From a virus (Duplodnaviria > Caudoviricetes): a stretch of DNA of 53,239 bases. The DNA is taken from positions 1 to 53,239 of IMG/VR virus record IMGVR_UViG_3300045006_000427, one strand, 5' to 3'. Both the position numbers and the translations under genes were made by a program. Of this stretch, positions 35,888-53,239 are shown piece after piece; within the stretch, counting starts at the first letter, position 1, and each line of letters begins with the position of its first letter. The notes beneath the pieces were generated by a model that was not told the origin of the DNA, searched no databases, and saw nothing but the letters and a program-made list of their open reading frames with translations.

Positions 35888-35891
35888 AGCA

Positions 35892-37217
35892 GTGCAAAAA
35901 TTAAGTCAACATCTTTGGGAGGCTTTCCTTTTGCAGGAATCAGCAAAAGGTTTGGCTGATATTCTAGACTGGGAAAAAAGAAATCCAGGGCAAGAAGTAA
36001 CGATTCATCTTTGGGCGACAACAGGACAAGGAGGGCATCTGACGGGCTACATAATAGAGTATTATATTAATGATAAAGGCACTGGTTACAGACTACCAGA
36101 TAATTATCGTGCAAAAATACCAAAACGCCTGAAAGATGACCCGGTGGGCGTAGTGAACATAGAGAGTTCAAGTCGCGGAACAGGGCCTTGCCTAGGCGCT
36201 ATGGAGGTGGTCTTTGCTCAGGCTAATCATGGTTGGGGGCCTTTGCTTTATGATGTGGCTCTAGAATTTGCTACTAAGTATGCTGGTGGATTAATGTCGG
36301 ACAGAACCAGCGTTACGAAGTATGCAAAGAAAATATGGAATTATTATGCCGATAACAGATCGGATGTTAAAAAGCAACAGCTTGATACGTTGTATACCCC
36401 GCCAGAAAAACTGACACCCAAAAATCCAAAGGATGATTGTCGTATAGATATTGCCATGAAGGATGTTGGACAGAAAGATCCTAAATCTGATGCCTGGGTG
36501 CAGAGTAACTTATCTAAGGTGTTTAAATCTAATGGAACGCCTACTATTAATGCTCTAAAAAAAGCTGGTAAATATTTTGTTCGCGGCCTGCTACAAAAAA
36601 TACAGGAAGAACTAAAAAAAGGAGCTAAAGAGATAACAAGAGAAGAAATCATCGCTGCTGTCCGTGCTGGCAAGAGCTTGGCAGGAGCAGATCTCCAGGA
36701 AGCAGACTTTCGGAAGGCATATCTTCAAGAAGCGAATTTCCAAAAAGCGAATCTTCAGAGGGCTAACTTCTGGAGTGCAGCGCTTCAGCGGGTAAATTTT
36801 CGGGAAGCAAATCTTCAGGAAACAGACTTTCGGAGGGCACAACTTTTAAAAGCAGATCTCCACGAAGCTGATCTTCGAAAAGCGGACCTTCGAAAAGCGA
36901 GTCTTGTGAAAGCGAATCTCCACGAAGCCGATCTTCGAGGAGCGAATATATTTTATATGGATGCTAAGGGTGCTAAAACCACAGGCATCAAGCTTTCCTG
37001 GGTTCCTAAGAAAGGAGATTCGATTAAGACGTATGCAAAATTAGACGGAATGGTTCTCGGCATTCTCCTGGAAGATCCAGATCCAGATCGTATGTTTGAT
37101 CCTGTCTCTGTTCGGCTGCGTGACAAGGAAATTAAGATCAGCATCACCGACATGAAGCCAGCCAGCAGGCTAGAAGAGATCATCCAGGAAGAGCTAAAAA
37201 AGGAACTAGGGAGGTAG
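35892..37217 (+). CDS. GNAT-like domain fused to pentapeptide-repeat/SH3-like cassette (copy 1, 19 repeats)
   Basis: GTG 35892 aligns with the start of paralogue 48365 (VQKL..W..FLLQESAK). 'GWGPLLYDVALE' resembles GNAT motif A. Cassette begins at about 36633 (ITREEIIAAVRAGKSL). Confidence 0.7.
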   Translation: MQKLSQHLWEAFLLQESAKGLADILDWEKRNPGQEVTIHLWATTGQGGHLTGYIIEYYINDKGTGYRLPDNYRAKIPKRLKDDPVGVVNIESSSRGTGPCLGAMEVVFAQANHGWGPLLYDVALEFATKYAGGLMSDRTSVTKYAKKIWNYYADNRSDVKKQQLDTLYTPPEKLTPKNPKDDCRIDIAMKDVGQKDPKSDAWVQSNLSKVFKSNGTPTINALKKAGKYFVRGLLQKIQEELKKGAKEITREEIIAAVRAGKSLAGADLQEADFRKAYLQEANFQKANLQRANFWSAALQRVNFREANLQETDFRRAQLLKADLHEADLRKADLRKASLVKANLHEADLRGANIFYMDAKGAKTTGIKLSWVPKKGDSIKTYAKLDGMVLGILLEDPDPDRMFDPVSVRLRDKEIKISITDMKPASRLEEIIQEELKKELGR

Positions 37218-37218
37218 T

Positions 37219-37599
37219 ATGTTTGCCTTTGTTCTTTTTGTTCTTGCGTGTTACGGCATAACACAAATATTAGTTTATGGTAAGATCTTTGAGGGATTGA
37301 GAACTTCTGTTCCCAAAAAGTTAAGTTTCGGAAGATACAGAGAAAAAATACATAAAGTATTAAAATATTATGTTCACTGTACCATGTGTATAGGCTTCTT
37401 GGTTGGTATCTTTGTTTTTTGTTCAATGCAGGGTACGAAACTATTTACTGTAGAGCTATCGTTAGCTAATGTTTTTATGTTTGCCGCGATAAGCTCAGGA
37501 ACTTCTTATTTTCTTTGTCAACTTGTGGATGATAAAGGGATAAGATTTAGTTGTTCTTCCGAGAGGAAGACGAGCGAGGTAAGGAATGAGGAAGACTAA
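37219..37599 (+). CDS. Small membrane protein (DUF1360-like)
   Basis: Three hydrophobic segments; 'CTMCIGFLVG' CxxCxGF motif; GGAGG SD. Confidence 0.55.
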   Translation: MFAFVLFVLACYGITQILVYGKIFEGLRTSVPKKLSFGRYREKIHKVLKYYVHCTMCIGFLVGIFVFCSMQGTKLFTVELSLANVFMFAAISSGTSYFLCQLVDDKGIRFSCSSERKTSEVRNEED

Positions 37600-37678
37600 C
37601 TTTCTGTATGTATCTGGGCGCTGGATGCTACGTCCCGTTGCTCGTTGTTGTAAAGGAAGCGAGCGCGCGCGTGGGTGA
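37586..37678 (+). CDS. 30-aa basic peptide with CC motif (not in ORF track)
   Basis: MRKTNFLYVSGRWMLRPVARCCKGSERARG*; preceded by GAGGT/AAGG; fills the gap before cassette 2. Confidence 0.4.
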   Translation: MRKTNFLYVSGRWMLRPVARCCKGSERARG

Positions 37679-37697
37679 GCCACGCAGGAGAAACGTC

Positions 37698-38111
37698 ATG
37701 ACAAGAAAAGAAATCATCGCTGCTGTTCATGCTGGCAAGAGCCTGGTGCAAGCAGATCTCCGAGGAGCAAACCTCCAAGATATAGATTTTCAGAATGCAG
37801 ATCTTAGTATGGCTAGTCTTCAGAGAGTAGATCTTCGAGGAGCAAATACATTTATTATGCGCGCCTCTGGCGCTAGGACTACTGATATCGAGCTTTCCTG
37901 GATTCCAAAAAAAGGAGATCTGGTCAAGTTGTATGCGATAGATGATATTGGCGGCATCCTCCTAGAGGATCCAGATCTAGATTATATATTTGATCCTGTC
38001 TCTGTGCAAACGTGTGATAAAATAAAAAAATTCAGCATTACTTATATGAAACCAGCTAGCTGGTTGAGCTTGGCTGAACAGAAAAAGCTAAGAAAAGAGC
38101 TAAAGAGATGA
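37698..38111 (+). CDS. Pentapeptide-repeat/SH3-like cassette copy 2 (8 repeats, most diverged)
   Basis: AGGAG SD then MTRKEIIAAVHAGKSL; A(D/N)Lxx repeats; WIPKKGDLV..GILLEDPD..MKPAS. Confidence 0.85.
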   Translation: MTRKEIIAAVHAGKSLVQADLRGANLQDIDFQNADLSMASLQRVDLRGANTFIMRASGARTTDIELSWIPKKGDLVKLYAIDDIGGILLEDPDLDYIFDPVSVQTCDKIKKFSITYMKPASWLSLAEQKKLRKELKR

Positions 38112-38641
38112 CAAGAGAAGAAATTATCGCTGCTGTCCAGGTTGGCAAGAGCCTGGCGAGAGCAGATCTTCGAGGAGCAAACCTTCAGGGAGCAAACCTC
38201 CTGGAAGCAAACCTCCAAGAAGCAAATCTCCAGGGAGCGAGCCTCTGGGAAGCAGATCTCTATGGAGCAAACCTCCGGAGAGCAAGCCTCCAGAGAGCAA
38301 ACCTTCAGAGAGCAGATCTCCAGGGAGCAGATCTTCGGAGAGCCAACTTTCAGGAAGCAGATCTGTTTCTTATGTCTGCCTATAAAGCCAAGACCACAGG
38401 CATCAAGCTCTCTTGGGTTCCCAAGAAGGGAGATCTGGTCAGGGTGTATCCAGATTATCCAAGGTCGAGGTCGAGTGTTCTCGGCATCCTTCTAGAAGAT
38501 CCAGATCCAGATTATATATTTGATCCTGTCTCTGTTCGGATCCGCGATGAAGAAACTAAGCTCAGCATCACCCATATGAAGCCAGCCAGCAGGCTAGAAG
38601 AAGTTATTCAAGAGGAACTAAAAAGGGAGCTAAAGAGATGA
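38108..38641 (+). CDS. Pentapeptide-repeat/SH3-like cassette copy 3 (15 repeats)
   Basis: Same architecture; ATGA-coupled to copies 2 and 4. Confidence 0.9.
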   Translation: MTREEIIAAVQVGKSLARADLRGANLQGANLLEANLQEANLQGASLWEADLYGANLRRASLQRANLQRADLQGADLRRANFQEADLFLMSAYKAKTTGIKLSWVPKKGDLVRVYPDYPRSRSSVLGILLEDPDPDYIFDPVSVRIRDEETKLSITHMKPASRLEEVIQEELKRELKR

Positions 38642-39144
38642 CAAGAGAAGAAATTATTGCCGCTATCCGGGCTGGCAAGAGCTTTCTGAAGGTAAATCTT
38701 CAGAGAATTAATCTTCAAGGAGCCGACCTTCGGGGAATAAACTTTCGGGCAGCCAATCTTCAAGGAGCCGATCTTCAGGGAGCAAACCTGCAAGAGGCGA
38801 ATCTTCTAGGAACGAATCTTCGAGAAGCAGATCTTCGGGGAGCAGACCTTCGGGGAGCTAATTTGCTTTTTATGTATGCTGAAGGTGCTAAGACCGCAGG
38901 TATTAGGCTTTCCTGGATTCCCAAAAAAGGAGATCTGGTTAAAATACAGTTCACTGTTGGAGGCGGCATAACAAAAGATGTTCCTGGCGTTCTTTTGGGC
39001 GATCCAAATCCAGATTACATATTTGATTCTATTCCCGTTCAAATACAGGGCAGAACAATACGTTATGGTATTGGTCGTATGAAGCCAGCCAGCAGGCTAG
39101 ATAAGATCATTCAAGAAGAGCTAAAAAAGGAGCTAAAGAGATGA
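38638..39144 (+). CDS. Pentapeptide-repeat/SH3-like cassette copy 4 (13 repeats)
   Basis: Same architecture with divergent SH3-like loops. Confidence 0.9.
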   Translation: MTREEIIAAIRAGKSFLKVNLQRINLQGADLRGINFRAANLQGADLQGANLQEANLLGTNLREADLRGADLRGANLLFMYAEGAKTAGIRLSWIPKKGDLVKIQFTVGGGITKDVPGVLLGDPNPDYIFDSIPVQIQGRTIRYGIGRMKPASRLDKIIQEELKKELKR

Positions 39145-39644
39145 CAAGAGAAGAAATTATCGCTGCTGTTCGTGTTGGCAAGAGTCTAGTGGGGGCAGAT
39201 CTTCGGAGAGCAGATCTCCGTGGAGCGAACTTTCAAGAAGTAGATCTCTATAGAGCAAACCTTGAAGGAGCAAGCCTCCAGGGAGCAGATCTCCGGAGAG
39301 CAAACCTCTCGGGAGCAAACCTTCAGGGAGCAGATTTTCAGGAAGCAGATCTGTTTTTTGTGTCTGCTCAGAAAGCTAAGACCACTGGTATCAAGCTTTC
39401 TTGGTTTCCCAAAAAGGGAGATCTGGTCAAGGCATATTCAGATTATCCAAGAGCAAGGAAGAATACCCTTGGCATCCTCCTAGAAGATCCAAACCCAGAT
39501 CATATATTTGATCCTGTTTCTGTTCGGATCCGCGATGAACAAATCAAGCTCAGCATCACTTGTATGAAGCCAGCCAGCAGGCTAGAAGAGATCATTCAAG
39601 AAGAGCTAAAAAGAGAGCTAAAAACACGAGGAATCAAAAAATGA
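39141..39644 (+). CDS. Pentapeptide-repeat/SH3-like cassette copy 5 (12 repeats)
   Basis: Same architecture; ATGA-coupled to the MNLKQLIQEE gene. Confidence 0.9.
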   Translation: MTREEIIAAVRVGKSLVGADLRRADLRGANFQEVDLYRANLEGASLQGADLRRANLSGANLQGADFQEADLFFVSAQKAKTTGIKLSWFPKKGDLVKAYSDYPRARKNTLGILLEDPNPDHIFDPVSVRIRDEQIKLSITCMKPASRLEEIIQEELKRELKTRGIKK

Positions 39645-39979
39645 ACCTAAAGCAGCTAATTCAGGAAGAAACAGAAGCAGTCTTTGCAGAGGCGGAAAAA
39701 GAGAGCAAAGGGAAAGAAGAGACCGAAACAGAGAAGAAAGCCAAAGAGCATCAAAAGCTTCGTATCTTCTACAATTATCTTAATATTTTGGAAAAAGGCA
39801 TTGAGCGAGCCAAAGAAGAGCGCATGAGCAAAGAAGCAAAACTAAGACTTGTTCGTGATATGAAAGCTGCACATGAATGGATAGGGGATAACTATCCTGA
39901 GTATGTGCCACACAAGGAGTGTATTAAATATCGTATGCGCTTGGGGAAAAAAGGAGGCAGACCTACAGAGGATGTTTAA
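39641..39979 (+). CDS. Small helical protein with N-terminal MNLKQLIQEE motif
   Basis: Start reassigned to ATG 39641 (GAGG SD, ATGA overlap, motif shared with 41956 and 43179). Confidence 0.65.
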   Translation: MNLKQLIQEETEAVFAEAEKESKGKEETETEKKAKEHQKLRIFYNYLNILEKGIERAKEERMSKEAKLRLVRDMKAAHEWIGDNYPEYVPHKECIKYRMRLGKKGGRPTEDV

Positions 39980-40262
39980 TATCAGAAACACAAAATTTTT
40001 AAGAGCTATTGAAGATCTAAAAGATGCCCGGCAACAGAGGGCTTCTTCTGAACAAACGCGAATCATGCTAAACAAGATGCACAGCAGGCTTCGTTCTTTT
40101 ATTGGCAGAAAGATTCTATGGCAAGCAACTAATGGTAAATGGTTGCCTTCTGTAATTGCTAATGTATTGCCGATCATAGAAAAAGGAAAAATAAGACTGG
40201 CTATTCAGTTAAAATCTCAATGGAATGGTATTTGGATATCGGAGGATAGGATAGAGCTATGA
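39972..40262 (+). CDS. Small basic protein with possible C-terminal SH3-like barrel
   Basis: AAGGAGG upstream of ATG 39972; 'IGRKILWQATNGKWLPSVI...IWISEDRIEL'. Confidence 0.45.
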   Translation: MFNIRNTKFLRAIEDLKDARQQRASSEQTRIMLNKMHSRLRSFIGRKILWQATNGKWLPSVIANVLPIIEKGKIRLAIQLKSQWNGIWISEDRIEL

Positions 40263-40885
40263 ATGCTGTGAACAAATTTCTGCTTCGTGAGTATTTTGCT
40301 TTGTGTCCAGGGGGAGTCTGCAAAGATCTGCTTACAGAAGAGGAAAAACGCGATATAGGTCACGGAGCTTATTATCTTACTGGAATTCTACAAGCTGCGG
40401 ATATAGAAAATGGCAATCACAGAGTCTATCCTTATAAGACCCTGAAGCGCGAAATAGATGCTTATGAGAAGTTGGTACGGGAACACAGGGCAGTAGGTGC
40501 TTTGGATCATCCGGATTCTGAAGTTGTAGAGCTTAAGGAAGCTTCTCATGTGGTTACACGTCTCTGGTGGGATGGAAAGAACGTGATGGGAACATTAAAG
40601 ATTCTTTCTACGCCCAATGGCAAGACCTTACGTGCTCTTTGTGAAGATAAAATCCAGCTAGGCATCTCTTCAAGATCCCTTGGAACTCTAAAAGAGGAAG
40701 GTGGCGTTTCTATGGTAGAAGAAAGTCTAGAGCTTATTTGTTTTGATGTTGTTCACGAGCCTAGCACTCCAGGAGCCTTTCTTAAGCCTCAAATGGTTAC
40801 AGAGAGCATGATTAGAAATATTCGCGGGAATTTCACCAAATCAGATAGACTTAATAGGTTAATGTTAAAGATTTTGGAGGGATAA
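40259..40885 (+). CDS. Prohead maturation protease (T4 gp21-like)
   Basis: 'GILQAAD.ENGNHRVYP', 'GALDHP', 'SH', 'STPNG', 'LGISSRSLG', 'FDVVHEPSTPGAF'. Confidence 0.95.
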   Translation: MNAVNKFLLREYFALCPGGVCKDLLTEEEKRDIGHGAYYLTGILQAADIENGNHRVYPYKTLKREIDAYEKLVREHRAVGALDHPDSEVVELKEASHVVTRLWWDGKNVMGTLKILSTPNGKTLRALCEDKIQLGISSRSLGTLKEEGGVSMVEESLELICFDVVHEPSTPGAFLKPQMVTESMIRNIRGNFTKSDRLNRLMLKILEG

Positions 40886-40890
40886 CAATC

Positions 40891-41175
40891 ATGGTCAAAT
40901 CAACAAAGCCCACATGGAAGAAACTAATTCAAGAAGAAGTGCATAAGATTTTTGAGAATTATTTTGGTGCGGATCGCAGGGAGCCAACCTACAGGCAAAC
41001 GGTGGAAATGCACAATAAAGCTCTGGAAATGGTCCAGCAGCTTCAACAAGAAGGCTATTATGATAGTCAAGTGCTTAAAATAGCTTACATGATGGAGAAT
41101 TCTGTGCGTAACGCCATGATTAAAAACAATAAGGTAATACCCGATATGCCAATGGCGCATGCTGATGATGATTGA
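40891..41175 (+). CDS. Small protein with 'KKLIQEEVHKIFE' motif
   Basis: 94 aa; GGAGG SD. Confidence 0.55.
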   Translation: MVKSTKPTWKKLIQEEVHKIFENYFGADRREPTYRQTVEMHNKALEMVQQLQQEGYYDSQVLKIAYMMENSVRNAMIKNNKVIPDMPMAHADDD

Positions 41176-41189
41176 TAAAGGAGATTGGA

Positions 41190-41717
41190 ATGAAAGAGGT
41201 GTCTAAAATTATCCAGGAAGAACTGGAAAAGGCTCTAACAGAAGCAGACCTCCCCAGGGTTGCCAAGGCTGCCATTAAGGTTCTTCCTCCTGGTACCAAG
41301 GTTAATATTAATAGGATAGTTGGTAGTGGCAAGATTGATAGATACGTGCCAGTTAATCAATATTATGTTCTTCTTGATGGCGGACAGGGTAGAATATTTG
41401 TAAATCGGGATGCTATTGAGCCTATTGAATCAACTGCGGTAGCAGATCAAACTTCGGAAACTGCAAAAACCACTTTAAAGCCTCGTGCGGCGACTCCGAC
41501 GAGGCGGCTGCGGGCAGATCAAACTTCGGAAACTGCAAAAACCACTTTAAACGAACTTGAAATCACCAAGGCGGATTGGCTAAAATCTTATCTTGGAATG
41601 TTTCGTAACGCTACGGCGGCAGAGCTTCTTTCCTTTTTGGTGAAACAGGGGTGGCTTGATCGGGAAGATGTCTATGGTATCGCCGGGGCCTGGCGAACTT
41701 TGATGGCGGGAGATTGA
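41190..41717 (+). CDS. Protein with N-terminal 'SKIIQEELEKALTE' motif, SH3/KOW-like domain and internal duplication
   Basis: AAGGAG SD before ATG 41190; 'LPPGTKVNI...GKI...YYVLLDG...FVNRDAIEPI'; ADQTSETAKTTL occurs twice. Confidence 0.6.
   Translation: MKEVSKIIQEELEKALTEADLPRVAKAAIKVLPPGTKVNINRIVGSGKIDRYVPVNQYYVLLDGGQGRIFVNRDAIEPIESTAVADQTSETAKTTLKPRAATPTRRLRADQTSETAKTTLNELEITKADWLKSYLGMFRNATAAELLSFLVKQGWLDREDVYGIAGAWRTLMAGD
41442..41551 (+). repeat. 38-bp direct repeats flanking a 34-bp GC-rich hairpin
   Basis: GCAGATCAAACTTCGGAAACTGCAAAAACCACTTTAAA at 41442-41479 and 41514-41551; stem GCCTCGT/ACGAGGC between them. Confidence 0.9.
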
Positions 41718-41718
41718 A

Positions 41719-41937
41719 ATGAGCATAAATATTAGAATTGAACAAAGATATAGAGATGAAGATTCAGATAGCATCATGCGTAGATTTAGGCGACAAATGA
41801 GAAAAGAAAACATTTTTGAAGAACTGGAAGAGCGTAGGTTCTACCAGAAACCTTCAGAAGTAAGACACAAGGCACATATGCGCAGGAAGAGAATGTTTCA
41901 AAAACAGAAATTAGAACAACGGGCACAGGAGAGATAA
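41719..41937 (+). CDS. rpsU: Phage-encoded 30S ribosomal protein bS21
   Basis: 72 aa, basic; 'EDSDSIMRRFRRQMRKENIFEELEERRFYQKPSEVRH' matches the bS21 pattern (lRRFKr..gi..e...R.fYeKPS..R). Confidence 0.88.
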   Translation: MSINIRIEQRYRDEDSDSIMRRFRRQMRKENIFEELEERRFYQKPSEVRHKAHMRRKRMFQKQKLEQRAQER

Positions 41938-41955
41938 AAAAAGGGAGCTAAAGGG

Positions 41956-42195
41956 ATGAACTTAAGGCAATTAATTCAGGAAGAAACAACAAAAGTATTT
42001 GAAAACGATCAGAAGTCGATTTTGCCAAGTGAAATCTTGTCTGCTGTTTCTGATATTCACGAACGAGCAGACATGGTGTTAGTTCATTGTGAAAAAGGCG
42101 ATAAGAAATCTACAGCTAAAGCTCTAGAACAGCTTTCAGAAGCATGCAGGCAATTTCAGAAACTAGAGCAAGATGTATTTTTGAGATTAAAATGA
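41956..42195 (+). CDS. Small helical protein with N-terminal MNLRQLIQEE motif
   Basis: 79 aa; GGGAG SD inside a cassette-junction-like sequence. Confidence 0.6.
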   Translation: MNLRQLIQEETTKVFENDQKSILPSEILSAVSDIHERADMVLVHCEKGDKKSTAKALEQLSEACRQFQKLEQDVFLRLK

Positions 42196-42617
42196 AACGT
42201 TCAGAATTTAAAACATATTTAAGACCATTAATTGAAGAAGTTCTTAGAGACGCCCTTCTAGAAGGCGGTTTTCTTCAAAAGATTATAACGGAGACCGCAA
42301 GGAGCATGCATCAGGGCTTTGTTTTATCTGAACAAAAACGAGAAATATTGATTCCTTCAAAAGAGGAGGAACAGGAAACTACACCTATGCCTAAGCCTAG
42401 GCTCACGGAAGCAAAAAAAAGATTAATAGATAAGATAGGCAATGAAGCATATGCGGGTGTCTTCGAGGGTGTAGCGCCTGTATCTAGTGCCGATAGTCAG
42501 CCTTCTTATAGTGCATTGCGCGATACAGATCCTTTGGATCCCGGAATTCCCATTGATGGAATTATGAAGATTGCTGGTGGCAAACAAAAATGGCAAGCGC
42601 ATATGGGAAAAAAATAA
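42192..42617 (+). CDS. Hypothetical head-module protein (MKRSEFKTYLRPLIEEVLRDALLE...)
   Basis: ATGA overlap at 42192; several LxE sites (LLE, LSE, LTE). Confidence 0.55.
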   Translation: MKRSEFKTYLRPLIEEVLRDALLEGGFLQKIITETARSMHQGFVLSEQKREILIPSKEEEQETTPMPKPRLTEAKKRLIDKIGNEAYAGVFEGVAPVSSADSQPSYSALRDTDPLDPGIPIDGIMKIAGGKQKWQAHMGKK

Positions 42618-42618
42618 C

Positions 42619-43182
42619 ATGACAAGAGAAGAAATCATCGCTGCTGTTCGTGCTGGCAAGAGCTTGGCAGAAGCGAGCCTCCGGGGAGCAAACCTCCGGG
42701 GGGCAAATCTCCGAGAAGCAAACCTTCGGGAAGCAGATCTCCAAAAGGCGAGCTTCTATGGAGCAAACCTTCAGGGAGCGAGCCTCCAGGGGGCAGATCT
42801 CTATCAAGCAGATCTCTCAGAAGCAAACCTCCGGGAAGCAGATCTCCAGGGAGTATATATGCCGGAAGCGAGCCTTCGGGGAGCAGATCTCCAGGAAGCA
42901 GATCTGCTTTTTATGCTTGCCTCTGATGCCAAGACCACAGGTATCAAGCTTTCCTGGGTACCCAAAAAAGGAGATCTGGTCAAGATACGTCCAGAATATG
43001 CAAATTTCAACAAGAGTACCATTGGCACTCTCCTAGAAGATCCAGATCCAAATCATATATTTAATCCTGTCTCCGTTCGGCTGCACGACAGAGAGATCGA
43101 AGTCAGCATCACCGACATGAAGCCAGCCAGCAAGCTAGAAAAGATCATTCAAGAAGAGCTAAAAAGAGAGCTAAAAAGGTGA
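42619..43182 (+). CDS. Pentapeptide-repeat/SH3-like cassette copy 6 (17 repeats)
   Basis: Start reassigned to MTREEIIAAV at 42619; ends LEKIIQEELKRELKR. Confidence 0.9.
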   Translation: MTREEIIAAVRAGKSLAEASLRGANLRGANLREANLREADLQKASFYGANLQGASLQGADLYQADLSEANLREADLQGVYMPEASLRGADLQEADLLFMLASDAKTTGIKLSWVPKKGDLVKIRPEYANFNKSTIGTLLEDPDPNHIFNPVSVRLHDREIEVSITDMKPASKLEKIIQEELKRELKR

Positions 43183-43454
43183 ATTTAAAGCAATTAATTC
43201 AGGAAGAGATAGCTGTTGCCAGCCTGGAAGAAATTCGAGATCAGATTTCCATTCTAAAAGAAGATTATCCGACGATACAGAAAACGGAAGTTTCATATGA
43301 TCCAGAAAACCAGCTTATCAACGTATGGCTCTATTTGTATAGACCCACGCATTATCATTTTCAAGAACATTGGCGAAATATTGAGGAACGAATATATACT
43401 ATTATAAGGATAATTGCAGGACGTGAAATTCGTCCATATATTCACATAAGATAA
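43179..43454 (+). CDS. Small protein with N-terminal MNLKQLIQEE motif
   Basis: GTGA overlap with cassette 6; 91 aa. Confidence 0.6.
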   Translation: MNLKQLIQEEIAVASLEEIRDQISILKEDYPTIQKTEVSYDPENQLINVWLYLYRPTHYHFQEHWRNIEERIYTIIRIIAGREIRPYIHIR

Positions 43455-43466
43455 GGAGAGTGACTT

Positions 43467-43871: not shown

Positions 43872-43880
43872 AAGATAAAT

Positions 43881-43911
43881 TTGGAATTTTAGAAAACATT
43901 AAACTACTTAT
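43881..43911 (+). promoter_or_regulatory. Putative late promoter of scaffold gene (TTGGAATTTTAGAAAA-N7-CTACTTAT)
   Basis: 16-bp element identical to the one upstream of the MCP gene, followed by the recurrent CTA(H)TTA motif. Confidence 0.55.
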
Positions 43912-43936
43912 CTATTGAGATATAGGAGTATTTTAC

Positions 43937-45244
43937 ATGTCAGATATGTTGCAACAAGCAGTAGTCGATGCGGCTGCTTTACGCGAGGCGGCACTACAGA
44001 AGGCACAGACTCTCGTGCTGGAGAAGTATGCCAACAATATTCGTGAAGCGGTAGAACAGATTCTAGAGCGGGTACCCGAAGAGCAGCCAATGCCGATGGG
44101 TGCAAATGCTAGTCTTGCAGGCGGTACCGCTGAAGAACAAAACGGCAGTGAAGAATTAAGCAAACCCGAGGTAACTCCTGGTGTTTTCGATGGTGAGCGA
44201 CTTTGTGATTGTCCTGATAATAATGAAGTAATCGAGCTTGATTTCGCCGATCTTCAAGCAGAAATTGCAAAGGGTGCAGAACCAGGTCCGGGTAGCGAAG
44301 AGCCTCATACCGAAGCTGCTGAAGATATCATGGGATTAAAAGAGAATGTCATGGCTTCGGGTGCCGTGGAAGGTGCGGCTGAATCAACAAAGCCAATAGA
44401 AGAGCTTATGCGTCCTGCGGCTATGGAAGAGAAGTGTGATGAATGTGAAAGCCCGAAACTAGAAGAGTGTGCTTGCTCTGAAAGAGAGCCGATTTCACCA
44501 GCCCCTCAGCCTGCTTCTCCAGTAGCTATTCAGGGAGAATCTGAAGAGATGCTGACTGAAGAAGATATTGCGCTCCTGGAGGGCTATTATGATGCCTTTT
44601 ATGGTGATGATAGTGCAGAATCGCCCGAATCTGAAGAGCTTAAGACCACAGAGGAAACACCTATTCAAGAGACTGTTGTTGTTGATCATCAGCCTGTTCC
44701 TTCTGGTAAATCAGCCTTTCATTCCGGGACAGAAGCAGAACTAGCAGAGGAAGCTGAAAAGAATTTAGCGGCGCTTCAGCACGATACCGAAATGAAAGAA
44801 GAACTTGCGGAACTAAAAAAGGAAGTATCTTCTCTCCAGGAAACAAGAAAATATCTTATTAGCAAAGAGCAGCAATATTTAAAAACTATTAAGGATATTA
44901 GTGGTCAGCTTTCTGAAAGTAATATCAGAAACGCTAGACTGCTTTATTGTAACAAAGCTTTGGTAGATTCCTCGCTAAATGAGCGGCAAAAGCAAAAGCT
45001 CGCGGAGGCAATCTGTAAAGCAAAGACCGTCGAGGAAACAAAAACGCTATATGAGGCGCTTCGAGAGACGCTTCGTGCAATCACAGAGCCTAACAGGGAG
45101 ATGGCAACGAGGAATAAGCCCCTGCGAGAGGCTTTGGTAAGGGATCGCACATCAATGGTGTCCAGAGAAAGCAAAGAAGCAGATCCGTTCTGGGTAGCGC
45201 AAAAACGCCTGGCGGGAATCAAAAAAGAAGAAAAAGAAAACTAA
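43937..45244 (+). CDS. Prohead core/scaffold protein (T4 gp22-like)
   Basis: 435 aa, very acidic, coiled-coil C-terminal half, many LxE sites, ends 'QKRLAGIKK'; directly upstream of MCP. Confidence 0.75.
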   Translation: MSDMLQQAVVDAAALREAALQKAQTLVLEKYANNIREAVEQILERVPEEQPMPMGANASLAGGTAEEQNGSEELSKPEVTPGVFDGERLCDCPDNNEVIELDFADLQAEIAKGAEPGPGSEEPHTEAAEDIMGLKENVMASGAVEGAAESTKPIEELMRPAAMEEKCDECESPKLEECACSEREPISPAPQPASPVAIQGESEEMLTEEDIALLEGYYDAFYGDDSAESPESEELKTTEETPIQETVVVDHQPVPSGKSAFHSGTEAELAEEAEKNLAALQHDTEMKEELAELKKEVSSLQETRKYLISKEQQYLKTIKDISGQLSESNIRNARLLYCNKALVDSSLNERQKQKLAEAICKAKTVEETKTLYEALRETLRAITEPNREMATRNKPLREALVRDRTSMVSRESKEADPFWVAQKRLAGIKKEEKEN

Positions 45245-45246
45245 AA

Positions 45247-45276
45247 TTGGAATTTTAGAAAAAGGATACTATTTAT
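45247..45276 (+). promoter_or_regulatory. Putative late promoter of major capsid gene (TTGGAATTTTAGAAAA-N6-CTATTTAT)
   Basis: Duplicate of the element at 43881; GGAGG SD follows. Confidence 0.55.
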
Positions 45277-45301
45277 ATCTGAATGAGCGGAGGATAATAT
45301 C

Positions 45302-47074
45302 ATGAGTTCACGTATTCTAACTAAACTAACAGAAGGTATCGTCGAGCGTTCCGTCCAACGAGAAGGTTCTGCTCTTCTTGAAAAATGGGAAAAGACGGGA
45401 CTTCTGGAAGGTCTACGATCTGATAATGAAAAAGCCAGTATGGCACGGCTATTGGAGAACCAAGCCAAAGAGCTTTTGAGGGAAGCTACCACAATGGCAG
45501 CCGGGGACGTGGAAGGTTTTGCTTCTGTTGCGTTCCCGATTGTTCGCAGGGTCTTTGCGGGCCTAATTGCAAATGATCTTGTGTCTGTGCAGCCTATGAG
45601 CCTTCCATCAGGGCTTATCTTCTTCCTAGATTTTACCTATACACACGGCAAGACCCATGCTGGTGCAGTAGCAGGGGAATCTCTGTACGGTGGAGGTAAG
45701 GTTGCCAAGGGGATCTCTGAGGGTGTATCCCTGACCGACACCAGCGCCGAAAAGGGCTTCTATAACCTGAACAACGGCTATGCCTCTCCGTCTGGTACTT
45801 TCAATGTGACTGGTGCTGCTGCTCTTGGAGCGGACGACACGTTGGTATCTCGTTCGTGGGGTAGTGCTGTTGATTATAATGCTAAGTTAGGAAACGCCAT
45901 TACTTCGTCATTTGATCAATCACTAGTGCAGTACGATCCAGATATCCTTGCAGATAGTGCAGCTTATTACAAGCTTTATGCTATCGAGCTTTCCGCTGCA
46001 CACTGGGGAGAGCTAAATCTGGATGATATTATAGCAATCGACTTTGGTACCACACATATGAGCGGTGCTACAGTTGTGCGCAGACTGTCAACCGTTCGTT
46101 CACGTACTGCATATCAGCTAAATATGGTCCTTCGAAATACTGTGGATACATGGCCTGATTTGGATGCGGCTACTACTCATGCCTTGCAGTTTGCTCACAA
46201 GGATCAGTTTACCGCTGGTGGGGCGCTTGGTTCTGTGGCGGGTACTCACGAATGGTATCTAGAGGCGCTATCCGGCACTGATCAGGATATCCCGGAAATT
46301 GATCTTAAGGTAGATTCGATTTCGGTTACGGCTGTAACGAAAAAGCTTAAGGCTTCCTGGACGCCTGAACTTGGACAAGATCTAGATGCGTATCATAACC
46401 TGGATGCAGAAGTAGAGCTAACAGGTATTCTCTCTGAGCAGATTGCTCTAGAGATTGACAGGGAAATCATTGTAGACCTGATCAAGGGTGCGACTGCGGG
46501 TACCTATTACTGGTCCCGGCAGCCAGGTAAATTCCTAGAGAGAACTACGGGTACGCCGATTGATAGGAGCCCGACCAGTCTTTCAACGTATCCTGATTTC
46601 ACTGGCAATGTTAGCGAATGGTATGAGACCTTGATTGAAACCATCAATGACGTGTCAGCACAGATCCACCGCAAAGTATTGCGCGGTGGGGCAAACTTCC
46701 TAGTTTGCGGACCAGAAGTGGGTAACATTTTGGAATTCACCAGCGGTTTCCGTGCTAATGTGACTCACGATAAGGAAAAAGGCAACGTAGGTGTTACCAA
46801 CACGGGCAGCCTATCAAAGAAATGGGATGTGTGGGTTGATCCTTATTTCCCACGGAATCTCATTTTGGTAGGTAGAAAAGGTGCAGGATTCCTAGAGAGC
46901 GGCTATGTCTACGCACCTTATGTGCCACTACAGGTCACGCCGACTATCTTTGGGCCTGACGACTTTACTCCCCGCAAGGGCGTAATGACGCGCTATGGCA
47001 AGAAAATGGTTAGACCCGATATGTATGGTCTTGTAATTGTAGAAGACCTACTAGGGGGTGTGTCCTACGCCTAG
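45302..47074 (+). CDS. Major capsid protein (T4 gp23-like)
   Basis: 'LLENQ', 'PIVRRVF', 'VSVQPMSLPSGLIF', 'KKLKASWTPELGQDL', 'EIDREI', 'YAPYVPL', 'FTPRKGVMTRYG'. Confidence 0.97.
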   Translation: MSSRILTKLTEGIVERSVQREGSALLEKWEKTGLLEGLRSDNEKASMARLLENQAKELLREATTMAAGDVEGFASVAFPIVRRVFAGLIANDLVSVQPMSLPSGLIFFLDFTYTHGKTHAGAVAGESLYGGGKVAKGISEGVSLTDTSAEKGFYNLNNGYASPSGTFNVTGAAALGADDTLVSRSWGSAVDYNAKLGNAITSSFDQSLVQYDPDILADSAAYYKLYAIELSAAHWGELNLDDIIAIDFGTTHMSGATVVRRLSTVRSRTAYQLNMVLRNTVDTWPDLDAATTHALQFAHKDQFTAGGALGSVAGTHEWYLEALSGTDQDIPEIDLKVDSISVTAVTKKLKASWTPELGQDLDAYHNLDAEVELTGILSEQIALEIDREIIVDLIKGATAGTYYWSRQPGKFLERTTGTPIDRSPTSLSTYPDFTGNVSEWYETLIETINDVSAQIHRKVLRGGANFLVCGPEVGNILEFTSGFRANVTHDKEKGNVGVTNTGSLSKKWDVWVDPYFPRNLILVGRKGAGFLESGYVYAPYVPLQVTPTIFGPDDFTPRKGVMTRYGKKMVRPDMYGLVIVEDLLGGVSYA

Positions 47075-47107
47075 CCTGAGCTAGTTCCTGATTCTGTTCT
47101 TTTCTTT

Positions 47108-47134
47108 GAAAGCCTGCCCCTCCGGCGGGCTTTC
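47108..47134 (+). terminator. Putative intrinsic terminator / stem-loop after MCP
   Basis: GAAAGCCTGCC-CCTCC-GGCGGGCTTTC, an 11-bp stem with one G-U pair; the U-tract is imperfect. Confidence 0.65.
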
Positions 47135-47218
47135 GTCTTAACAAATCATTTTTTTGTGACATGATGGTATCGGAGAAGACTATTTATGTTAGATGACATA
47201 CAACGAAATTAAGATAAT

Positions 47219-47695
47219 ATGACAAGAAGAGAAATTATCGCTGCTGTTCGTGCTAGCAAGAGCTTGGCAGGAGCAAATCTCCAGGAAACAGATCTCCAGA
47301 GAGCCAGCCTTAAGGAGGCGAACTTCCATGGAGCAAACCTCCGGGGGGCAAATCTCCGAGAAGCAAACCTTCGGGAAGCAGATCTTCAGGGAGCAAACCT
47401 TCAAGAAGCAGATCTGTTTTTTATGTACGCCCATGGTGCCAAGACCACAGGCATCAAGCTCTCTTGGGTTCCTAAGAAAGGAGATCTAGTCAGGGCATAT
47501 CCAGATTATTCAAATCCAAACAAGAGCACCCTCGGCATCCTCCTAGAAGATCCAGATCCAGATTATATATTTAATCGTATCTCCATTCGGCTGCATGATG
47601 AAGAGGTCAAGATCAGCATCGCCCACATGAAGCCAGCCAGCAGGCTAGAAGAGATCATTCAAGAAGAACTAAAAAGAGAGCTAAAAAGATGTTAA
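47219..47695 (+). CDS. Pentapeptide-repeat/SH3-like cassette copy 7 (11 repeats)
   Basis: Same architecture; CTATTTAT motif at 47180. Confidence 0.9.
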   Translation: MTRREIIAAVRASKSLAGANLQETDLQRASLKEANFHGANLRGANLREANLREADLQGANLQEADLFFMYAHGAKTTGIKLSWVPKKGDLVRAYPDYSNPNKSTLGILLEDPDPDYIFNRISIRLHDEEVKISIAHMKPASRLEEIIQEELKRELKRC

Positions 47696-48330
47696 GAAGA
47701 GAAATCATCGCTGCTGTTCGTGCTGGCAAGAGCTTGGCAGGAGCAGATCTCCAGAAGGCCAGCCTCCAGGGAGCATATCTTCATGGGGCGAGCTTCCAAA
47801 GAGCAGATCTTCGGGAGGCAGACCTCCGGAGAGCAAGCCTTCAGGAAGCAGATCTTCAAAGAGCGAACCTCCAGGAAGCAACCCTTCAGGAAGCGAACCT
47901 CCAGAAAGTGAATCTTCAGGAAGCAAACCTCCAGGAAGCAGATTTCTATAGAGCAAGCCTCCAAAAAGCAAACCTCCAGGGAGCAGACCTCCAGGAAGCA
48001 GACCTCCGGGGAGCAGATCTTCAAGAAGCAAACCTCCAGGGAGCAAATCTGCTTTTTATGTTCGCCTCTGAAGCCAAGACCACAGGTATCAAGCTTTCCT
48101 GGGTACCCAAAAAAGGAGATCTGGTCAGGGCATATTCAGATTATTCAAATGCAGACCAGAGCGCTCTCGGCATCCTTCTAGAAGATCCAGATCCAGATCA
48201 TCTATTTAATCCTATCTCCATTCGGCTGCATGATAAGGTAGTTAGGCGCAGCATCATCGACATGAAGCCAGCCAGCATGCTAGAAGAGATCATCCAGGAA
48301 GAACTAGCAACTATTTGTCGAAAGCAATAG
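47689..48330 (+). CDS. Pentapeptide-repeat/SH3-like cassette copy 8 (22 repeats)
   Basis: Same architecture; homology ends right after IIQEEL. Confidence 0.9.
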   Translation: MLRREIIAAVRAGKSLAGADLQKASLQGAYLHGASFQRADLREADLRRASLQEADLQRANLQEATLQEANLQKVNLQEANLQEADFYRASLQKANLQGADLQEADLRGADLQEANLQGANLLFMFASEAKTTGIKLSWVPKKGDLVRAYSDYSNADQSALGILLEDPDPDHLFNPISIRLHDKVVRRSIIDMKPASMLEEIIQEELATICRKQ

Positions 48331-48364
48331 CTTCTTTTTCTGCTTTTTCTTTCTATTTATCTAT

Positions 48365-49063
48365 ATGCAAAAGCTTTTAAAAACCTGGAAACAATTTCTT
48401 CTAGAAGAGAAGCAAATTCTTCAAGAATCAGCAAAAACAGTCAATGATCTTCTTGCTGCGGAAAAGAAGCACCCGGAATTTAAATTATGTGTCACGGTTG
48501 CTTCCTATGGAGATCGTATGATTGCAATACGTTATACATGTTATGTAAAAAATACGGGAAAAGCTTATTACAAAAATGTAATTCCTGGTTTTCCTAGAGG
48601 AGAAATTGAAATAGGACGACCACCGCGTATTCTTGGTGCATGCCTTGCGGGCTGGGCTGTTTATTATGCTGACGCCGATTCGGGCTGGGGGCCTCTGCTC
48701 TACGATGTGGCTATGGAATATGCAACGGAACATGGCGGTGGCTTAATGGCTGATAGAGGAAGCGTCTCTTCTGATGCAAAAGCTGTTTGGGATTATTACG
48801 ATCAACGGAGAAGAGATGTGCGCAAGGATCAGCTAGATAATCTTTCTCCCCCTCCAGAACAGCTAACACCTAATGATATTTCAGACGATTGCGGACAGGA
48901 ATCCGCAATTGAGTGGGCAGAAAAAGACTATGGAACGGATAAGAAGTGGAATAAGGAAAGTTTATCCAGGCTTTTTAGATCCAAAGGAACACCTACCATC
49001 GATGCTTTAAAAAAGATTGGCAGATATAAAGATCTTGTTGGAGACAGATTCGAAGACATATAG
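48365..49063 (+). CDS. GNAT-like protein, paralogue of the N-terminal domain of 35892..37217
   Basis: Shared 'G.CL....V..A.A..GWGPLLYDVA.E.AT...GGLM.DR.SV...AK..W.YY...R.DV.K.QLD.L..PPE.LTP....DDC' and 'GTPTI.ALKK.G.Y'. Confidence 0.65.
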   Translation: MQKLLKTWKQFLLEEKQILQESAKTVNDLLAAEKKHPEFKLCVTVASYGDRMIAIRYTCYVKNTGKAYYKNVIPGFPRGEIEIGRPPRILGACLAGWAVYYADADSGWGPLLYDVAMEYATEHGGGLMADRGSVSSDAKAVWDYYDQRRRDVRKDQLDNLSPPPEQLTPNDISDDCGQESAIEWAEKDYGTDKKWNKESLSRLFRSKGTPTIDALKKIGRYKDLVGDRFEDI

Positions 49064-49071
49064 ATATGCTC

Positions 49072-49719
49072 ATGACAAGAAAAGAAATCATCGCTGCTAT
49101 CCGCGCTGGCAAGAGCCTAGCAGGGGTAGATCTTCAGAAAGCCAGCTTCCAGGAAGCAAACCTCCAAGGAGCAGATCTTCGGAGAGCAAACTTCCAGGAA
49201 GCAGATCTTCAAGGAGCAGATCTTCAGAGGGCTAGTCTCCAGGAAGCAAATTTCCAAGAAGCAGACCTCCAGGGAGCATATCTTTATGAAGCAATGCTTC
49301 AGAGAGCGAATCTCCAGGGAGCAAATCTCCAGAGGGCTAGTTTCTATAGAGCAAACTTCCAGGGGGCAAGTCTTCAGAGAGCAAATCTCCAAGGAGCAGA
49401 CCTTCAGGAAGCAGATCTTCGGAGAGTAAACCTTCAGGAAGCAGATCTGCTTTTTATGTATGCCTATGGTGTCAAGACCGCAGGCATCAAGCTCTCCTGG
49501 ATTCCTAAGAAAGGAGATCTAGTCAGGGCATATCTGGAATATTTAAACAAGAGCGCCCTTGGCATCCTCCTAGAAGATCCAGATCCAGATTATATATTTG
49601 AGCCTGTCTCTGTTCGGCTGCATGATGAAGAAGTCAAGCTTAGCATCACCGACATGAAGCCAGCCAGCAGGCTAGAAGAGATCATTCAAGAAGAGCTAAA
49701 AAGAGAGCTAAAAAAGTGA
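49072..49719 (+). CDS. Pentapeptide-repeat/SH3-like cassette copy 9 (23 repeats)
   Basis: MTRKEIIAAIRAGKSL at 49072 (ATG 49066 is an alternative start). Confidence 0.9.
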   Translation: MTRKEIIAAIRAGKSLAGVDLQKASFQEANLQGADLRRANFQEADLQGADLQRASLQEANFQEADLQGAYLYEAMLQRANLQGANLQRASFYRANFQGASLQRANLQGADLQEADLRRVNLQEADLLFMYAYGVKTAGIKLSWIPKKGDLVRAYLEYLNKSALGILLEDPDPDYIFEPVSVRLHDEEVKLSITDMKPASRLEEIIQEELKRELKK

Positions 49720-51068
49720 CAAGAGAAGAAATCATCGCTGCTGTACAGGCTGACAAGAGCCTGGCAGGAGCAAACCTTCAGAAAGCAAGCCTCTATAAAG
49801 CAGACCTCCGAGGAGCAGATTTCCAAGGAGCAAATCTTCAGAAAGCAAGCCTCCAGGGAGCAGATCTTCGAGAAGCAAACTTTCAGAAAGCAAACCTCTA
49901 TGAAGCAGATTTCTATAGAGCAAGCCTCCAAAAAGCAAACCTCCAGGGAGCAGACCTCCAGGAAGCAGACCTCCGGGGAGCAGATCTTCGAGAAGCAAAC
50001 TTTCAGAAAGCAAACCTCTATGAAGCAAACCTCCGGAGAGCAAACCTCCGGAGAGCAAACCTCCGGGAAGCAAGCCTCCAGGGAGCAGATCTTCGAGAAG
50101 CAAACTTTCAGAAAGCAAACCTCTATGAAGCAGATCTGTTTTTTATGTACGCCTATGATGCCAAGACCGCTGGCATCAAGCTCTCTTGGATTCCTAAGAA
50201 AGGAGATCTGGTCAGGGTATATCCAGGTTATTCAAATCCAGACGAGAGCGTTCTTGGCGTCCTCCTGGAAGATCCAGATCCAGATCATCTATTTAATCCC
50301 GTCTCTGTTCGGCTGCGCGATAAGGTAGCTAGATCTAGCATTACCTATATGAAGCCAGCCAGCAGATTAGAAGAGATCGTCCAAGAAGAAGTTTCTCTGC
50401 TTTTTGAAGGTAAGCTAGAGCGAGAGACTACTATCCTTGCCAGGGTGCTTCTTCAAGCTATTAAACAATTCTATCAGAAGGAGCCTGGAAAAAGCTTTTT
50501 TAGAATTATGTGGCTTCCAGAGGAACTTCGTGCTCTTGGTATTGATCTTCCAAAAATGGGCGTTTTTAACTTTGCTTTTTTTGTTGAAGAAAAGAGCGAT
50601 CTTGAGGTCAAGGGCATGTATCGTCCTCAAGCTGGCGGTGTGACAGTTCTTGTGAATGTTCCGAGAGCCTGGAGGTATATCAATGCTCATTTAAATGATA
50701 TATTGGTTAAGCTTAAAGAAGTAATTCGACACGAACTAGAACACACTACTCAGTCTCCTAAAATGTTATATGCCGCCTCTAACATTAGTAAAACCAAAGG
50801 ACTATTGCCGTATCTTTCATCCTCAGCAGAATTGCGTGCTTGGACATCTGGCTTGTATAAGCGAGCTAAAGTGCAAAGAAGGCCATTAAAAGATGTTTTT
50901 GATGAATTTTTTCATCATGTTTATATAGGATTTGTAAATAGAATGAGCGCAATGCGCGATGATCTTTCTTTTGTAGAGATCGATAAGATAGCTATGCGCG
51001 ACGTGCGCAAGTTGCGCAGGAGATGGGAGAAATACGTGAGAGGTCGTTATCCAGGAGCGCAGCTATGA
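49716..51068 (+). CDS. Pentapeptide-repeat/SH3-like cassette copy 10 (26 repeats) fused to an HExxH metallopeptidase-like domain
   Basis: Cassette runs to about 50390 (RLEEIVQEE), then an unrelated domain with 'VIRHELEHTTQ' (50730) and 'YLSSSAELRAW'. Confidence 0.8.
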   Translation: MTREEIIAAVQADKSLAGANLQKASLYKADLRGADFQGANLQKASLQGADLREANFQKANLYEADFYRASLQKANLQGADLQEADLRGADLREANFQKANLYEANLRRANLRRANLREASLQGADLREANFQKANLYEADLFFMYAYDAKTAGIKLSWIPKKGDLVRVYPGYSNPDESVLGVLLEDPDPDHLFNPVSVRLRDKVARSSITYMKPASRLEEIVQEEVSLLFEGKLERETTILARVLLQAIKQFYQKEPGKSFFRIMWLPEELRALGIDLPKMGVFNFAFFVEEKSDLEVKGMYRPQAGGVTVLVNVPRAWRYINAHLNDILVKLKEVIRHELEHTTQSPKMLYAASNISKTKGLLPYLSSSAELRAWTSGLYKRAKVQRRPLKDVFDEFFHHVYIGFVNRMSAMRDDLSFVEIDKIAMRDVRKLRRRWEKYVRGRYPGAQL

Positions 51069-53044: not shown

Positions 53045-53239
53045 GTGGCAAATGAATTTACCATGCCCACTATTGGGCCTCCTCCGCTGTATACTGGAGA
53101 TAAAGAAAAAGCTTTGGTCAAAGCTGTTAATACTGAGATTAACGAAAGGGTCCGGGGGCAGCTAGTTATTTATTATCCTGTAGATCTTGAACATACCAAA
53201 TTCCATTCAGTCTATGGTGAAGCCATTGTAAAGACGTTT
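53045..53239 (+). CDS. Putative neck/head-closure protein (gp14-like), 3' truncated
   Basis: GTG start; MANEFTMPTIGPPPLY...GQLVIYYPVD...VYGEAIVKTF, open to the window end; follows the gp13-like gene. Confidence 0.55.
   Translation, partial: MANEFTMPTIGPPPLYTGDKEKALVKAVNTEINERVRGQLVIYYPVDLEHTKFHSVYGEAIVKTF

Follow-up and report, generated by a model that had tools for sequence, protein, structure and literature searches.

The locus considered here raises the question of whether a DNA element that recurs at gene boundaries is a site of recombination or only resembles one. In a 53,239-nucleotide stretch of tailed-phage DNA (IMG/VR record IMGVR_UViG_3300045006_000427, positions 1 to 53,239; hereafter, the window), ten genes for pentapeptide-repeat proteins (PRPs) are found at 36.6-39.6, 42.6-43.2 and 47.2-50.4 kb, and the element lies at junctions between these genes and their neighbours. 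A first-pass annotation, made from the letters alone, had proposed that this DNA is the preferred crossover point of an integrase-free, integron-like gene accordion. Our best reading is instead that two functional units meet in the element, units that commonly lie side by side but also occur apart. We favour, at somewhat better than even probability, the view that the first unit is a head-protein tag with an I-x-E core (C-terminal on PRPs and N-terminal elsewhere) and that it abuts a translational-coupling cassette. Counts below refer to 13 PRP copies across ~85 kb of one phage: ten in the window (c1 to c10) and three (La, Lb and Lc) on a second contig, G001, which very probably continues it.

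The PRPs of this phage share a conserved start (MTREEIIAAV), variable repeats, a small conserved C-terminal domain and a tail (MKPASRLEEIIQEELKRELKR); repeat number varies, with 115-210 residues between both anchors. A 29-nt consensus of the junction element, allowing at most three mismatches, matched six plus-strand sites (38609, 39112, 39597, 43150, 47660 and 49687), and none of 100 shuffles contained a match, so that the recurrent junction element is real. Diverged copies flank copy 1, at 36603-36635 and 37185-37214, and stop and next start overlap (ATGA or GTGA) at six junctions: c2/c3, c3/c4, c4/c5, c6/g43179, c7/c8 and c9/c10. Overlaps of four bases between a stop and a start are frequent in the rest of the phage, too (e.g., 1664/1667, 12353/12356, 15556/15559 and 23701/23704). 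The element joins differing partners, with a PRP, a domain X or an S21-like protein encoded upstream and a PRP, a "leader" gene or g37219 downstream. The breaks in homology after IIQEEL in copy 8, after ELK in copy 5 and after IVQEE in copy 10 (which runs into VSLLFEG) were found where the first-pass annotation had placed them, and its central observation, that one stretch is protein label, ribosome site and overlapping stop/start, holds. Some of its details need amending. The junction is conserved, but the "33-bp" element is part of a longer island of conserved DNA that extends from the codons for MKPAS through the first 60 nt of the next gene (median pairwise identity 91% for the 45-nt MKPAS segment and 82% for those 60 nt). 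IIQEE is present in 12 of the 13 PRPs, but not in copy 2.

The window was scored with the c3/c4 junction split into part A (42 nt, encoding MKPASRLEEVIQEE) and part B (23 nt). At nine PRP ends, part A reached scores of 34-42 out of 42, and no background position exceeded 24; the instances other than the c3/c4 example start at 37152, 39079, 39564, 43117, 47627, 48262, 49654 and 50349 (34-38/42). Part B consists of CTAAAAAGGGAGCTAAAGAG plus ATG (CTAAAAAGRGAGCTAAARRG-ATG), that is, a Shine-Dalgarno (SD) sequence, a spacer and the start of the next gene, with GGAG or GAGAG eight bases ahead of ATG. It scored 17-23 of 23 at ten sites (starts at 36613, 37194, 38088, 38618, 39121, 39606, 41936, 43159, 47669 and 49696), the background maximum being 15, and is itself a 12-nt tandem duplication translated ELKR-ELKR.

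The two parts are separable. Part A occurs without part B in four of the 13 copies, which are followed by an intergenic gap (c8), an in-frame domain (c10), another gene with its own GGAG (La) or the end of the array (Lc). Conversely, part B is kept wherever the stop overlaps the next start (c2, c3, c4, c6, c7, c9 and Lb), including c2 despite its lost IIQEE, and it stands without part A behind the S21-like gene (Table 1). In our reading, part B is the cassette from which translation of the downstream gene is initiated; LKRELKR would then be mere read-through of this cassette by the upstream open reading frame (ORF) until the overlapping stop. By eye, the coding end of the S21-like gene resembles a decayed tag; this candidate was rejected as not significant, since its score of 19/42 was equalled at 459 positions. 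No junction hairpin was seen in four folded strands (z +0.29 to +1.02, 118-175 of 200 shuffles folding equally well), and scans of the window for promoters and terminators gave no excess (32 promoter-like matches, where shuffles gave 28.3, and 13 terminator-like ones, where they gave 15.7). Of the T4 late-promoter octamer there is a single minus-strand occurrence, 3.4 being expected.

One junction reveals how the cassette came to be there. Between domain X1 and copy 1, the plus-strand element at 36603..36635 has an extra A in its A-run, and its ATG has become ATA; the domain X1 frame runs through the cassette in a shifted frame into copy 1, reading LKKGAKEI in place of LKKELKR and stop. Assembled Logan contigs of three public lake-water runs (words shared: 0.96 for run X1, 0.19 for run X2 and 0.09 for run X3) were compared with the window, for which run X1 is the probable source, and a contig of run X1 concurs with it across 35500-36692, which includes this junction. 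Since the cassette is read here in a different frame, it arrived as DNA, which shows descent of DNA rather than convergence of protein.

The tag end, MKPASRLEEIIQEE, stands on the ten PRP paralogs of the window. In a six-frame search, the pattern [LIVM][LIVM]QE[ES] had 16 matches, all of them in plus frames and within 35928-50376; the remaining 38 kb and the minus strand had none. Nine of the 16 are PRP tails. At least six small proteins of the head module that are otherwise dissimilar, and both X domains (LLQES, ILQES), begin with such a core (hydrophobic-I-Q/E-E). A looser core was found in the first 30 residues of six of 51 non-overlapping plus-strand ORFs, all at 35.8-49.1 kb, with g39641 as a seventh if read from its ATG. 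The leader genes are small ORFs located between the portal and capsid genes, and in an alignment of six leader proteins, the only invariant residues are the I and E of I-x-E, the remainder being unalignable; g39641, g41956 and g43179 have a common N-terminus, M/V-N-L-K/R-Q-L-I-Q-E-E. In five of the 13 PRPs, LKRELKR has been replaced (c5 partly; c8, c10, La and Lc), and the breaks are always 3' of QEE.

These genes surround a prohead protease of the T4 gp21 family (Table 1). T4 gp21 cuts after L/I-X-E; the T4 capsid-targeting sequence (CTS) of ~10 residues is all that the varied T-even internal proteins have in common, and processing of Alt takes place at both ends, C-terminus included (PMC9026906, PMC3012670, PMC12373910). 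In our proposal, what part A encodes is the final stretch of a short, helical tag (MKPASRLEE-I-I-Q-E-E) whose I-x-E core is of the recognition type of this protease family. A structural model of copy 7, described below, accords with this in placing the tail in a terminal helix outside the folded domains. By analogy with T4, the tag would carry the proteins that bear it into the core of the prohead and would be cut after IQE, making at least ten PRPs and the enzyme-like domains fused to them candidate C-terminally tagged internal (injected) head proteins. The sequence itself shows how the element is built, that its two parts are separable, which family the protease belongs to and how the motif is distributed; packaging, cleavage and injection of the tagged proteins, and any role against host defence, are inferred. 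Sequence past IQE would be discarded and hence be free to vary. A cut at this point would explain why breaks occur only past QEE, why LKRELKR is dispensable in 5/13 copies and why in-frame fusions (domain X1 to c1, c10 to the HExxH domain) are tolerated there. The tandem arrays would have arisen by ordinary unequal homologous recombination among paralogs, for which the ~120-bp junction island would be one good substrate among several.

Several observations weigh against this proposal. The residue following the proposed cut is E or S, and the capsid protein's own N-terminal candidate sites (LLE, LRE) lack Q. Three leaders are conserved for a few residues past the proposed cut (xxK[V/I]FEN), a pattern that suits an extended binding helix no less well than a propeptide that is cleaved. 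With the tag at the C-terminus, its targeting part would be left on the mature protein, unlike the T4 CTS. At the synonymous level, the MKPASRLEEI block (37152-37181 and equivalents in 12 copies), which lies upstream of the element as first annotated, is identical in 264 of 264 comparisons over MKPAS and in 238 of 267 over RLEEI; this is beyond what a tag would need and could reflect gene conversion or a constraint at the RNA or DNA level. The small ORFs match no known head-core family, and PHROGs searches with ten of them were uninformative. Finally, Microcystis phage Mel-JY01, the closest isolated phage (capsid protein 37% identical; same gene order), shows one weak counterpart only, KIVQEV, after its protease gene.

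The first-pass proposal, that the element DNA is a preferred crossover at which cassettes are duplicated, inserted, deleted or fused by short-homology recombination, no integrase being needed and coupling being kept, is in our judgement unlikely, although a good deal speaks for it. Homology is lost within 24 nt after IIQEE in five of 13 copies. Cassette DNA stands behind two non-PRP genes (domain X1 and the S21-like gene), frame-shifted and hence arrived as DNA at the former, and an RBS cassette plus leader is common to three unrelated genes. T4-type phages amplify segments at 6-10-bp microhomologies (PMC9391042) and shuffle ORFs at conserved promoter/SD cassettes (PMC2839356). The phage also encodes, in a single 1048-aa ORF (25233-28379), an Mre11-like phosphoesterase fused to an SMC/Rad50-like ATPase, the functions of T4 gp47 and gp46.

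Against it stand, in the first place, the synonymous sites. Codon sharing at identical residues was counted among 12 PRP copies (c2 dropped). For IQEE, 160 of 253 comparisons agreed (0.63; 0.52 expected from codon usage), and for the rest of the C-terminal region 2025 of 2754 (0.74, where the codon usage of the phage predicts 0.41); the best-conserved 14-codon window is the EDPDPD block (0.90). Saturation had been named as an outcome that would speak against a DNA-level role: the C-terminal region is unsaturated, but IQEE is not specially conserved, and since its sharing is below the gene-wide value, the tail is not a specially preserved DNA site. The element is absent upstream of six of seven array starts (c2, c6, c7, c9, La and Lb), so that the outer boundaries do not show insertion at a resident element. 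The paralogs are mosaics with exchange points within genes (identity between La and Lc is 97% in the first 60 nt but 80% in the C-domain), and the repeat region offers far more homology than the junction. Selection for intact genes would leave breaks at gene ends under any mechanism. For these reasons, the junction as preferred crossover of an integron-like system is not borne out.

A search for recombinases had been suggested; PF00589, PF00239 and PF00154 gave no match, so that the ~85 kb of window and G001, which is under half a genome, yielded no member of the integrase, resolvase or RecA families. A primase-like ORF (24295-25233) and a weak RuvC-like one (23701-24234) were also noted.

Junction variants in reads had also been expected. 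The contigs of the three runs contained no novel joints and no indels, though contigs cannot reveal rare variants, and the uncovered parts and the low shares of runs X2 and X3 carry no evidential weight. Ten loose ends were seen, two of which (47679 and 49717) are the La copy of G001. One contig, present in runs X1 and X3, leaves the window at 47689, the ATG after the copy-7 tail, for sequence absent from both window and G001. This departure would suit a crossover at the junction, but it may equally lead into another paralog in the ~54% of the genome that lies outside both records (CheckV: window ~29%, G001 ~17%). A 16-mer from this loose end had four IMG/VR matches, which were discarded as unrelated chance matches. 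Run contigs diverge from the window at 47689 and 48976 (runs X1 and X3), 48351 and 45239 (run X2) and 44335 and 45221 (run X1), two of these points being at PRP or domain-X gene ends; they may represent further paralogs elsewhere in the genome or strain variants.

Junction and conserved gene start together form a ~120-bp island of ~90% identity that must be usable for unequal crossing-over, and nothing in these results singles out the 33 bp from the surrounding homology. A special recombination role of the junction is a possible secondary property, plausible in view of published precedents.

According to a further explanation, which we consider rather improbable, the tail helix is a structural, oligomerisation or DNA- or partner-binding feature of the PRPs that is unlinked to the protease, the leaders being alike by composition or paralogy and the DNA likeness reflecting duplication. 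Unsaturated synonymous sites gene-wide (0.74 against 0.41) mean that the DNA similarity is mostly due to recent duplication, and the leaders of g39641, g41956 and g40891 are alike past IQEE, as diverged paralogs would be. An AlphaFold2 model of copy 7 (pLDDT 86.4) comprises an N-terminal helix, a beta-helix (pLDDT >90 over residues 1-80), a small beta domain and a terminal helix, 141-157; this last corresponds to the tail and is predicted to lie outside the folded domains, with lower confidence (pLDDT 60-71 across the final two 10-residue blocks). What speaks for a protease tag and against a structural helix is that the core is present on proteins that are otherwise dissimilar (domains X1 and X2, six leader ORFs and the PRPs), that it is restricted to the head module, that the two residues invariant in it, I and E, are precisely those of the recognition type of the protease family (PMC9026906) and that the helix past QEE is dispensable in five of 13 copies.

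An assembly artefact, with arrays and junctions as collapsed or chimeric repeats, is very improbable: contigs of run X1 do break within most PRP genes, as repeats would, but contigs span junctions without differences (from the tail of c1 to the start of c3, 37154-38126; the whole of c4 and the junctions on either side of it, 38628-39158; from the end of c8 to c9, 48183-49531), the copies differ from one another by 15-40%, and every reading frame is open.

The window, whose genome record is a single contig, is a fragment of a T4-like phage with every long ORF on the plus strand. Its final open ORF (53045-53239) aligns with residues 2-52 of a 174-residue Mel-JY01 protein, and the first open ORF of G001 (L002 1-287) with residues 55-155 of the same protein; the frames agree given ~4 nt missing. 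Both records are present in run X1, where the G001-specific flanks appear as loose ends. Because the gene halves are in frame and the records occur together in this run, G001, a 31.6-kb IMG/VR contig, was treated as the continuation of the window, the two being, very probably, adjacent pieces of one phage genome. It was tried as a separate related phage in blastn and tblastx comparisons, which were dropped for this reason. G001 is the only other record with the same PRP family: a profile scan of IMG/VR returned this one locus and an exact 23-mer scan the same contig. No independent relative was found among metagenome contigs or GTDB genomes, and in a search of 5.8 billion protein clusters, all nine matches came from window and G001.

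On G001, the three PRP genes have neck and tail genes around them. La forms an in-frame fusion with an inorganic-pyrophosphatase domain (PF18823, E 8.9e-37; L002 1020-2231), the third kind of enzyme-like domain joined to PRPs after domain X1 and HExxH; Lb and Lc are a tandem pair preceding the sheath gene. The HExxH domain of copy 10 is a separate gene on G001 (L002 277-1023, 30% amino acid identity). It had been labelled peptidase-like, for which the HExxH motif is the sole basis: Pfam gave no hit, and a protein atlas returned viral hypothetical clusters only. For domain X2, GNAT is a lead only (15% of one cluster). A P-loop kinase-like ORF (51023-51724; AAA_33, E 2e-14, and also a Zeta_toxin model) shares 46 nt with the end of the c10-HExxH ORF.

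The PRPs match PF00805 (Pfam E 2.1e-23 to 1.4e-43), and in comparison with PDB structures, the copy 7 beta-helix matched PRPs of Nostoc and Cyanothece, MfpA and QnrB1. The small beta domain with tag helix at the C-terminus was found in no protein beyond window and G001 in the cluster search. Copies are 60-86% identical in the C-domain. Copy 4 is only 60-67% identical to the others there; its 45-nt tag segment is 87-96% identical to ten of the 12 others, 80% to c10 and 67% to c2. Long open frames on the opposite strand and in shifted frames of every PRP gene (36612-36842, 38608-38793, 47692-48046 and 49686-50118) appear to be a by-product of periodic repeat composition and not genes.

Table 1. 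Features of the window discussed in the text, in order of position.
Feature	Position	Strand	Remarks
Terminase	30939-32549		
Portal	32565-34508		
Domain X1	35856..36632	+	41% amino acid identity to X2; N-terminal FLLQES, C-terminal LLQKIQEELKK tag
PRP copy 1	36633..37217	+	In-frame fusion to domain X1 (ORF 35856-37217); tail EEIIQEELKKELGR, then stop
PRP copy 2	37698..38111	+	Shortest, most diverged; MKPAS and RBS half (KELKR) kept, IIQEE absent
PRP copy 3	38108..38641	+	Tail EEVIQEELKRELKR, then stop; ATGA overlap with copy 4
Part A, example	38576..38617	+	42 nt
Part B, example	38618..38640	+	23 nt; SD-like GGGAG, 8-nt spacer, ATG
PRP copy 4	38638..39144	+	
PRP copy 5	39141..39644	+	Homology stops after ELKRELK, then TRGIKK and stop; next is leader gene g39641
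Leader gene g39641	39641..39979	+	Starts MNLKQLIQEE; remainder unrelated to other leaders
Prohead protease	40259..40885	+	Peptidase_S77 (T4 gp21 family); PF03420 E 6.1e-29, phrog_207 1.2e-48
Leader gene g40891	40891..41175	+	Directly past protease gene; KKLIQEE at residues 10-16
Leader gene g41190	41190..41717	+	Starts MKEVSKIIQEE
Ribosomal protein S21 homologue	41719-41937		Within head module; PF01165 E 1.8e-10
Part B without part A	41936..41958	+	After stop of S21-like gene (at cassette's first bases), before g41956; 20/23
Leader gene g41956	41956..42195	+	Starts MNLRQLIQEE
Leader gene g42192	42192..42617	+	Variant core PLIEEV (L-I-E-E)
PRP copy 6	42619..43182	+	Isolated; no upstream element; GTGA overlap with leader gene g43179
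Leader gene g43179	43179..43454	+	Starts (GTG) NLKQLIQEE
Acidic 435-aa protein	43937..45244	+	Scaffold position; no family hit, assigned by position only
Major capsid protein	45302..47074	+	Gp23 family, E 1.1e-71
PRP copy 7	47219..47695	+	First gene past major capsid gene
PRP copy 8	47689..48330	+	Homology stops after IIQEEL, then ATICRKQ and stop; intergenic space next
Domain X2	48365..49063	+	N-terminal QILQES, no C-terminal tag; viral hypothetical family
PRP copy 9	49072..49719	+	Domain X2 before, no element between; GTGA overlap with copy 10
PRP copy 10	49716..50390	+	Past IVQEE in frame into HExxH domain (50391-51068)

Mel-JY01 also has a ribosomal-S21-like gene, at the equivalent position. 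Two further ORFs of the window were noted: a 3224-aa ORF (1664-11338) amid structural genes at the window start and, amid tail or baseplate genes, a 444-aa glycine-rich protein (21138-22472) that has long G-rich tracts and is internally duplicated almost exactly (HQASHENGGADEISVAGLSGLLADAQTPTS twice).

If the tag proposal is taken further, one can picture a capsid loaded with at least 13 length-variable PRPs, possibly DNA mimics, together with GNAT-like X, HExxH and pyrophosphatase domains, all bearing one I-Q-E tag at either terminus; the protease would resolve tag fusions, and the junction of tag and RBS would serve as a homology patch through which the repertoire changes while expression is kept. 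We regard this extended picture as doubtful. Were it true, the three-in-one idea of the first-pass annotation would be right in substance. Injected internal proteins of T-even phages specifically inhibit host restriction systems, as was recently shown (PMC12373910). When the literature was searched for pentapeptide proteins of phages in the role of virion proteins or DNA mimics, none of the matches listed was relevant, from which we do not claim their absence from print. If the tag itself is what we propose, capsid targeting extends to a C-terminal tag, to protease-resolved fusion proteins and to a large family of PRPs with the fold of the gyrase-binding MfpA and Qnr, and a terminal I-Q-E near a gp21-type protease gene becomes a rule for finding packaged effectors in uncultured phages. 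A cleavable tail overlapping the next ribosome site would also stack coding and regulatory constraints at a cassette boundary, which explains how such a boundary can resemble a recombination site without being one.

Among known systems, the closest are T4 CTS-bearing internal proteins (IPI-III and Alt). Common to both are a gp21-family protease in the module, a terminal I-x-E peptide of ~10 residues as the sole feature shared by otherwise unrelated non-core proteins, and a variable, multi-gene repertoire; Alt provides the precedent for C-terminal processing. In the phage studied here, by contrast, the tag is C-terminal on PRPs, where most of it would be retained on the mature protein, and N-terminal on leaders and domains X1 and X2; the set comprises a 13-member PRP family and enzyme-like domains, some in in-frame fusions, and is encoded within the head and neck modules.

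The PeSL cassettes of T4-type phages RB49 and phi1 likewise have a conserved junction that ends in SD and ATG and flanks accessory genes. They were proposed as substrates of homologous recombination, their authors drawing the comparison to integrons without integrase; crossovers were mapped between SD/ATG and the -10 box, and mini-circles were demonstrated (PMC2839356). PeSLs are intergenic, ~100 bp long, and contain a sigma-70-type promoter and a terminator stem-loop, whereas the element described here is half coding, has no stem-loop and shows no promoter or terminator excess. Mini-circles and mapped crossovers are features of PeSLs; the present element is known from assembled sequence. In an integron, too, promoterless cassettes form a one-directional row with a recurring boundary (attC/attI). 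The boundary in our phage differs in having no folded imperfect palindrome and in being missing at 6/7 array starts, and window and G001 encode no tyrosine recombinase.

Head-to-tail accessory arrays without a site-specific recombinase are also formed by microhomology amplification at T4 dmd-tifA and by the poxvirus K3L "accordion" (PMC9391042). Those arrays are recent, near-identical and unstable. The PRP copies, with a C-domain identity of 60-86% and unequal numbers of repeats, are by this measure old, diversified paralogs, unlike the dmd-tifA and K3L arrays. With other PF00805 proteins (cyanobacterial Rfr, MfpA and Qnr), they share tandem A(D/N)LXX repeats and, as modelled, a right-handed beta-helix; the additional small beta domain and the C-terminal tag helix were, among the clusters searched, confined to window and G001.

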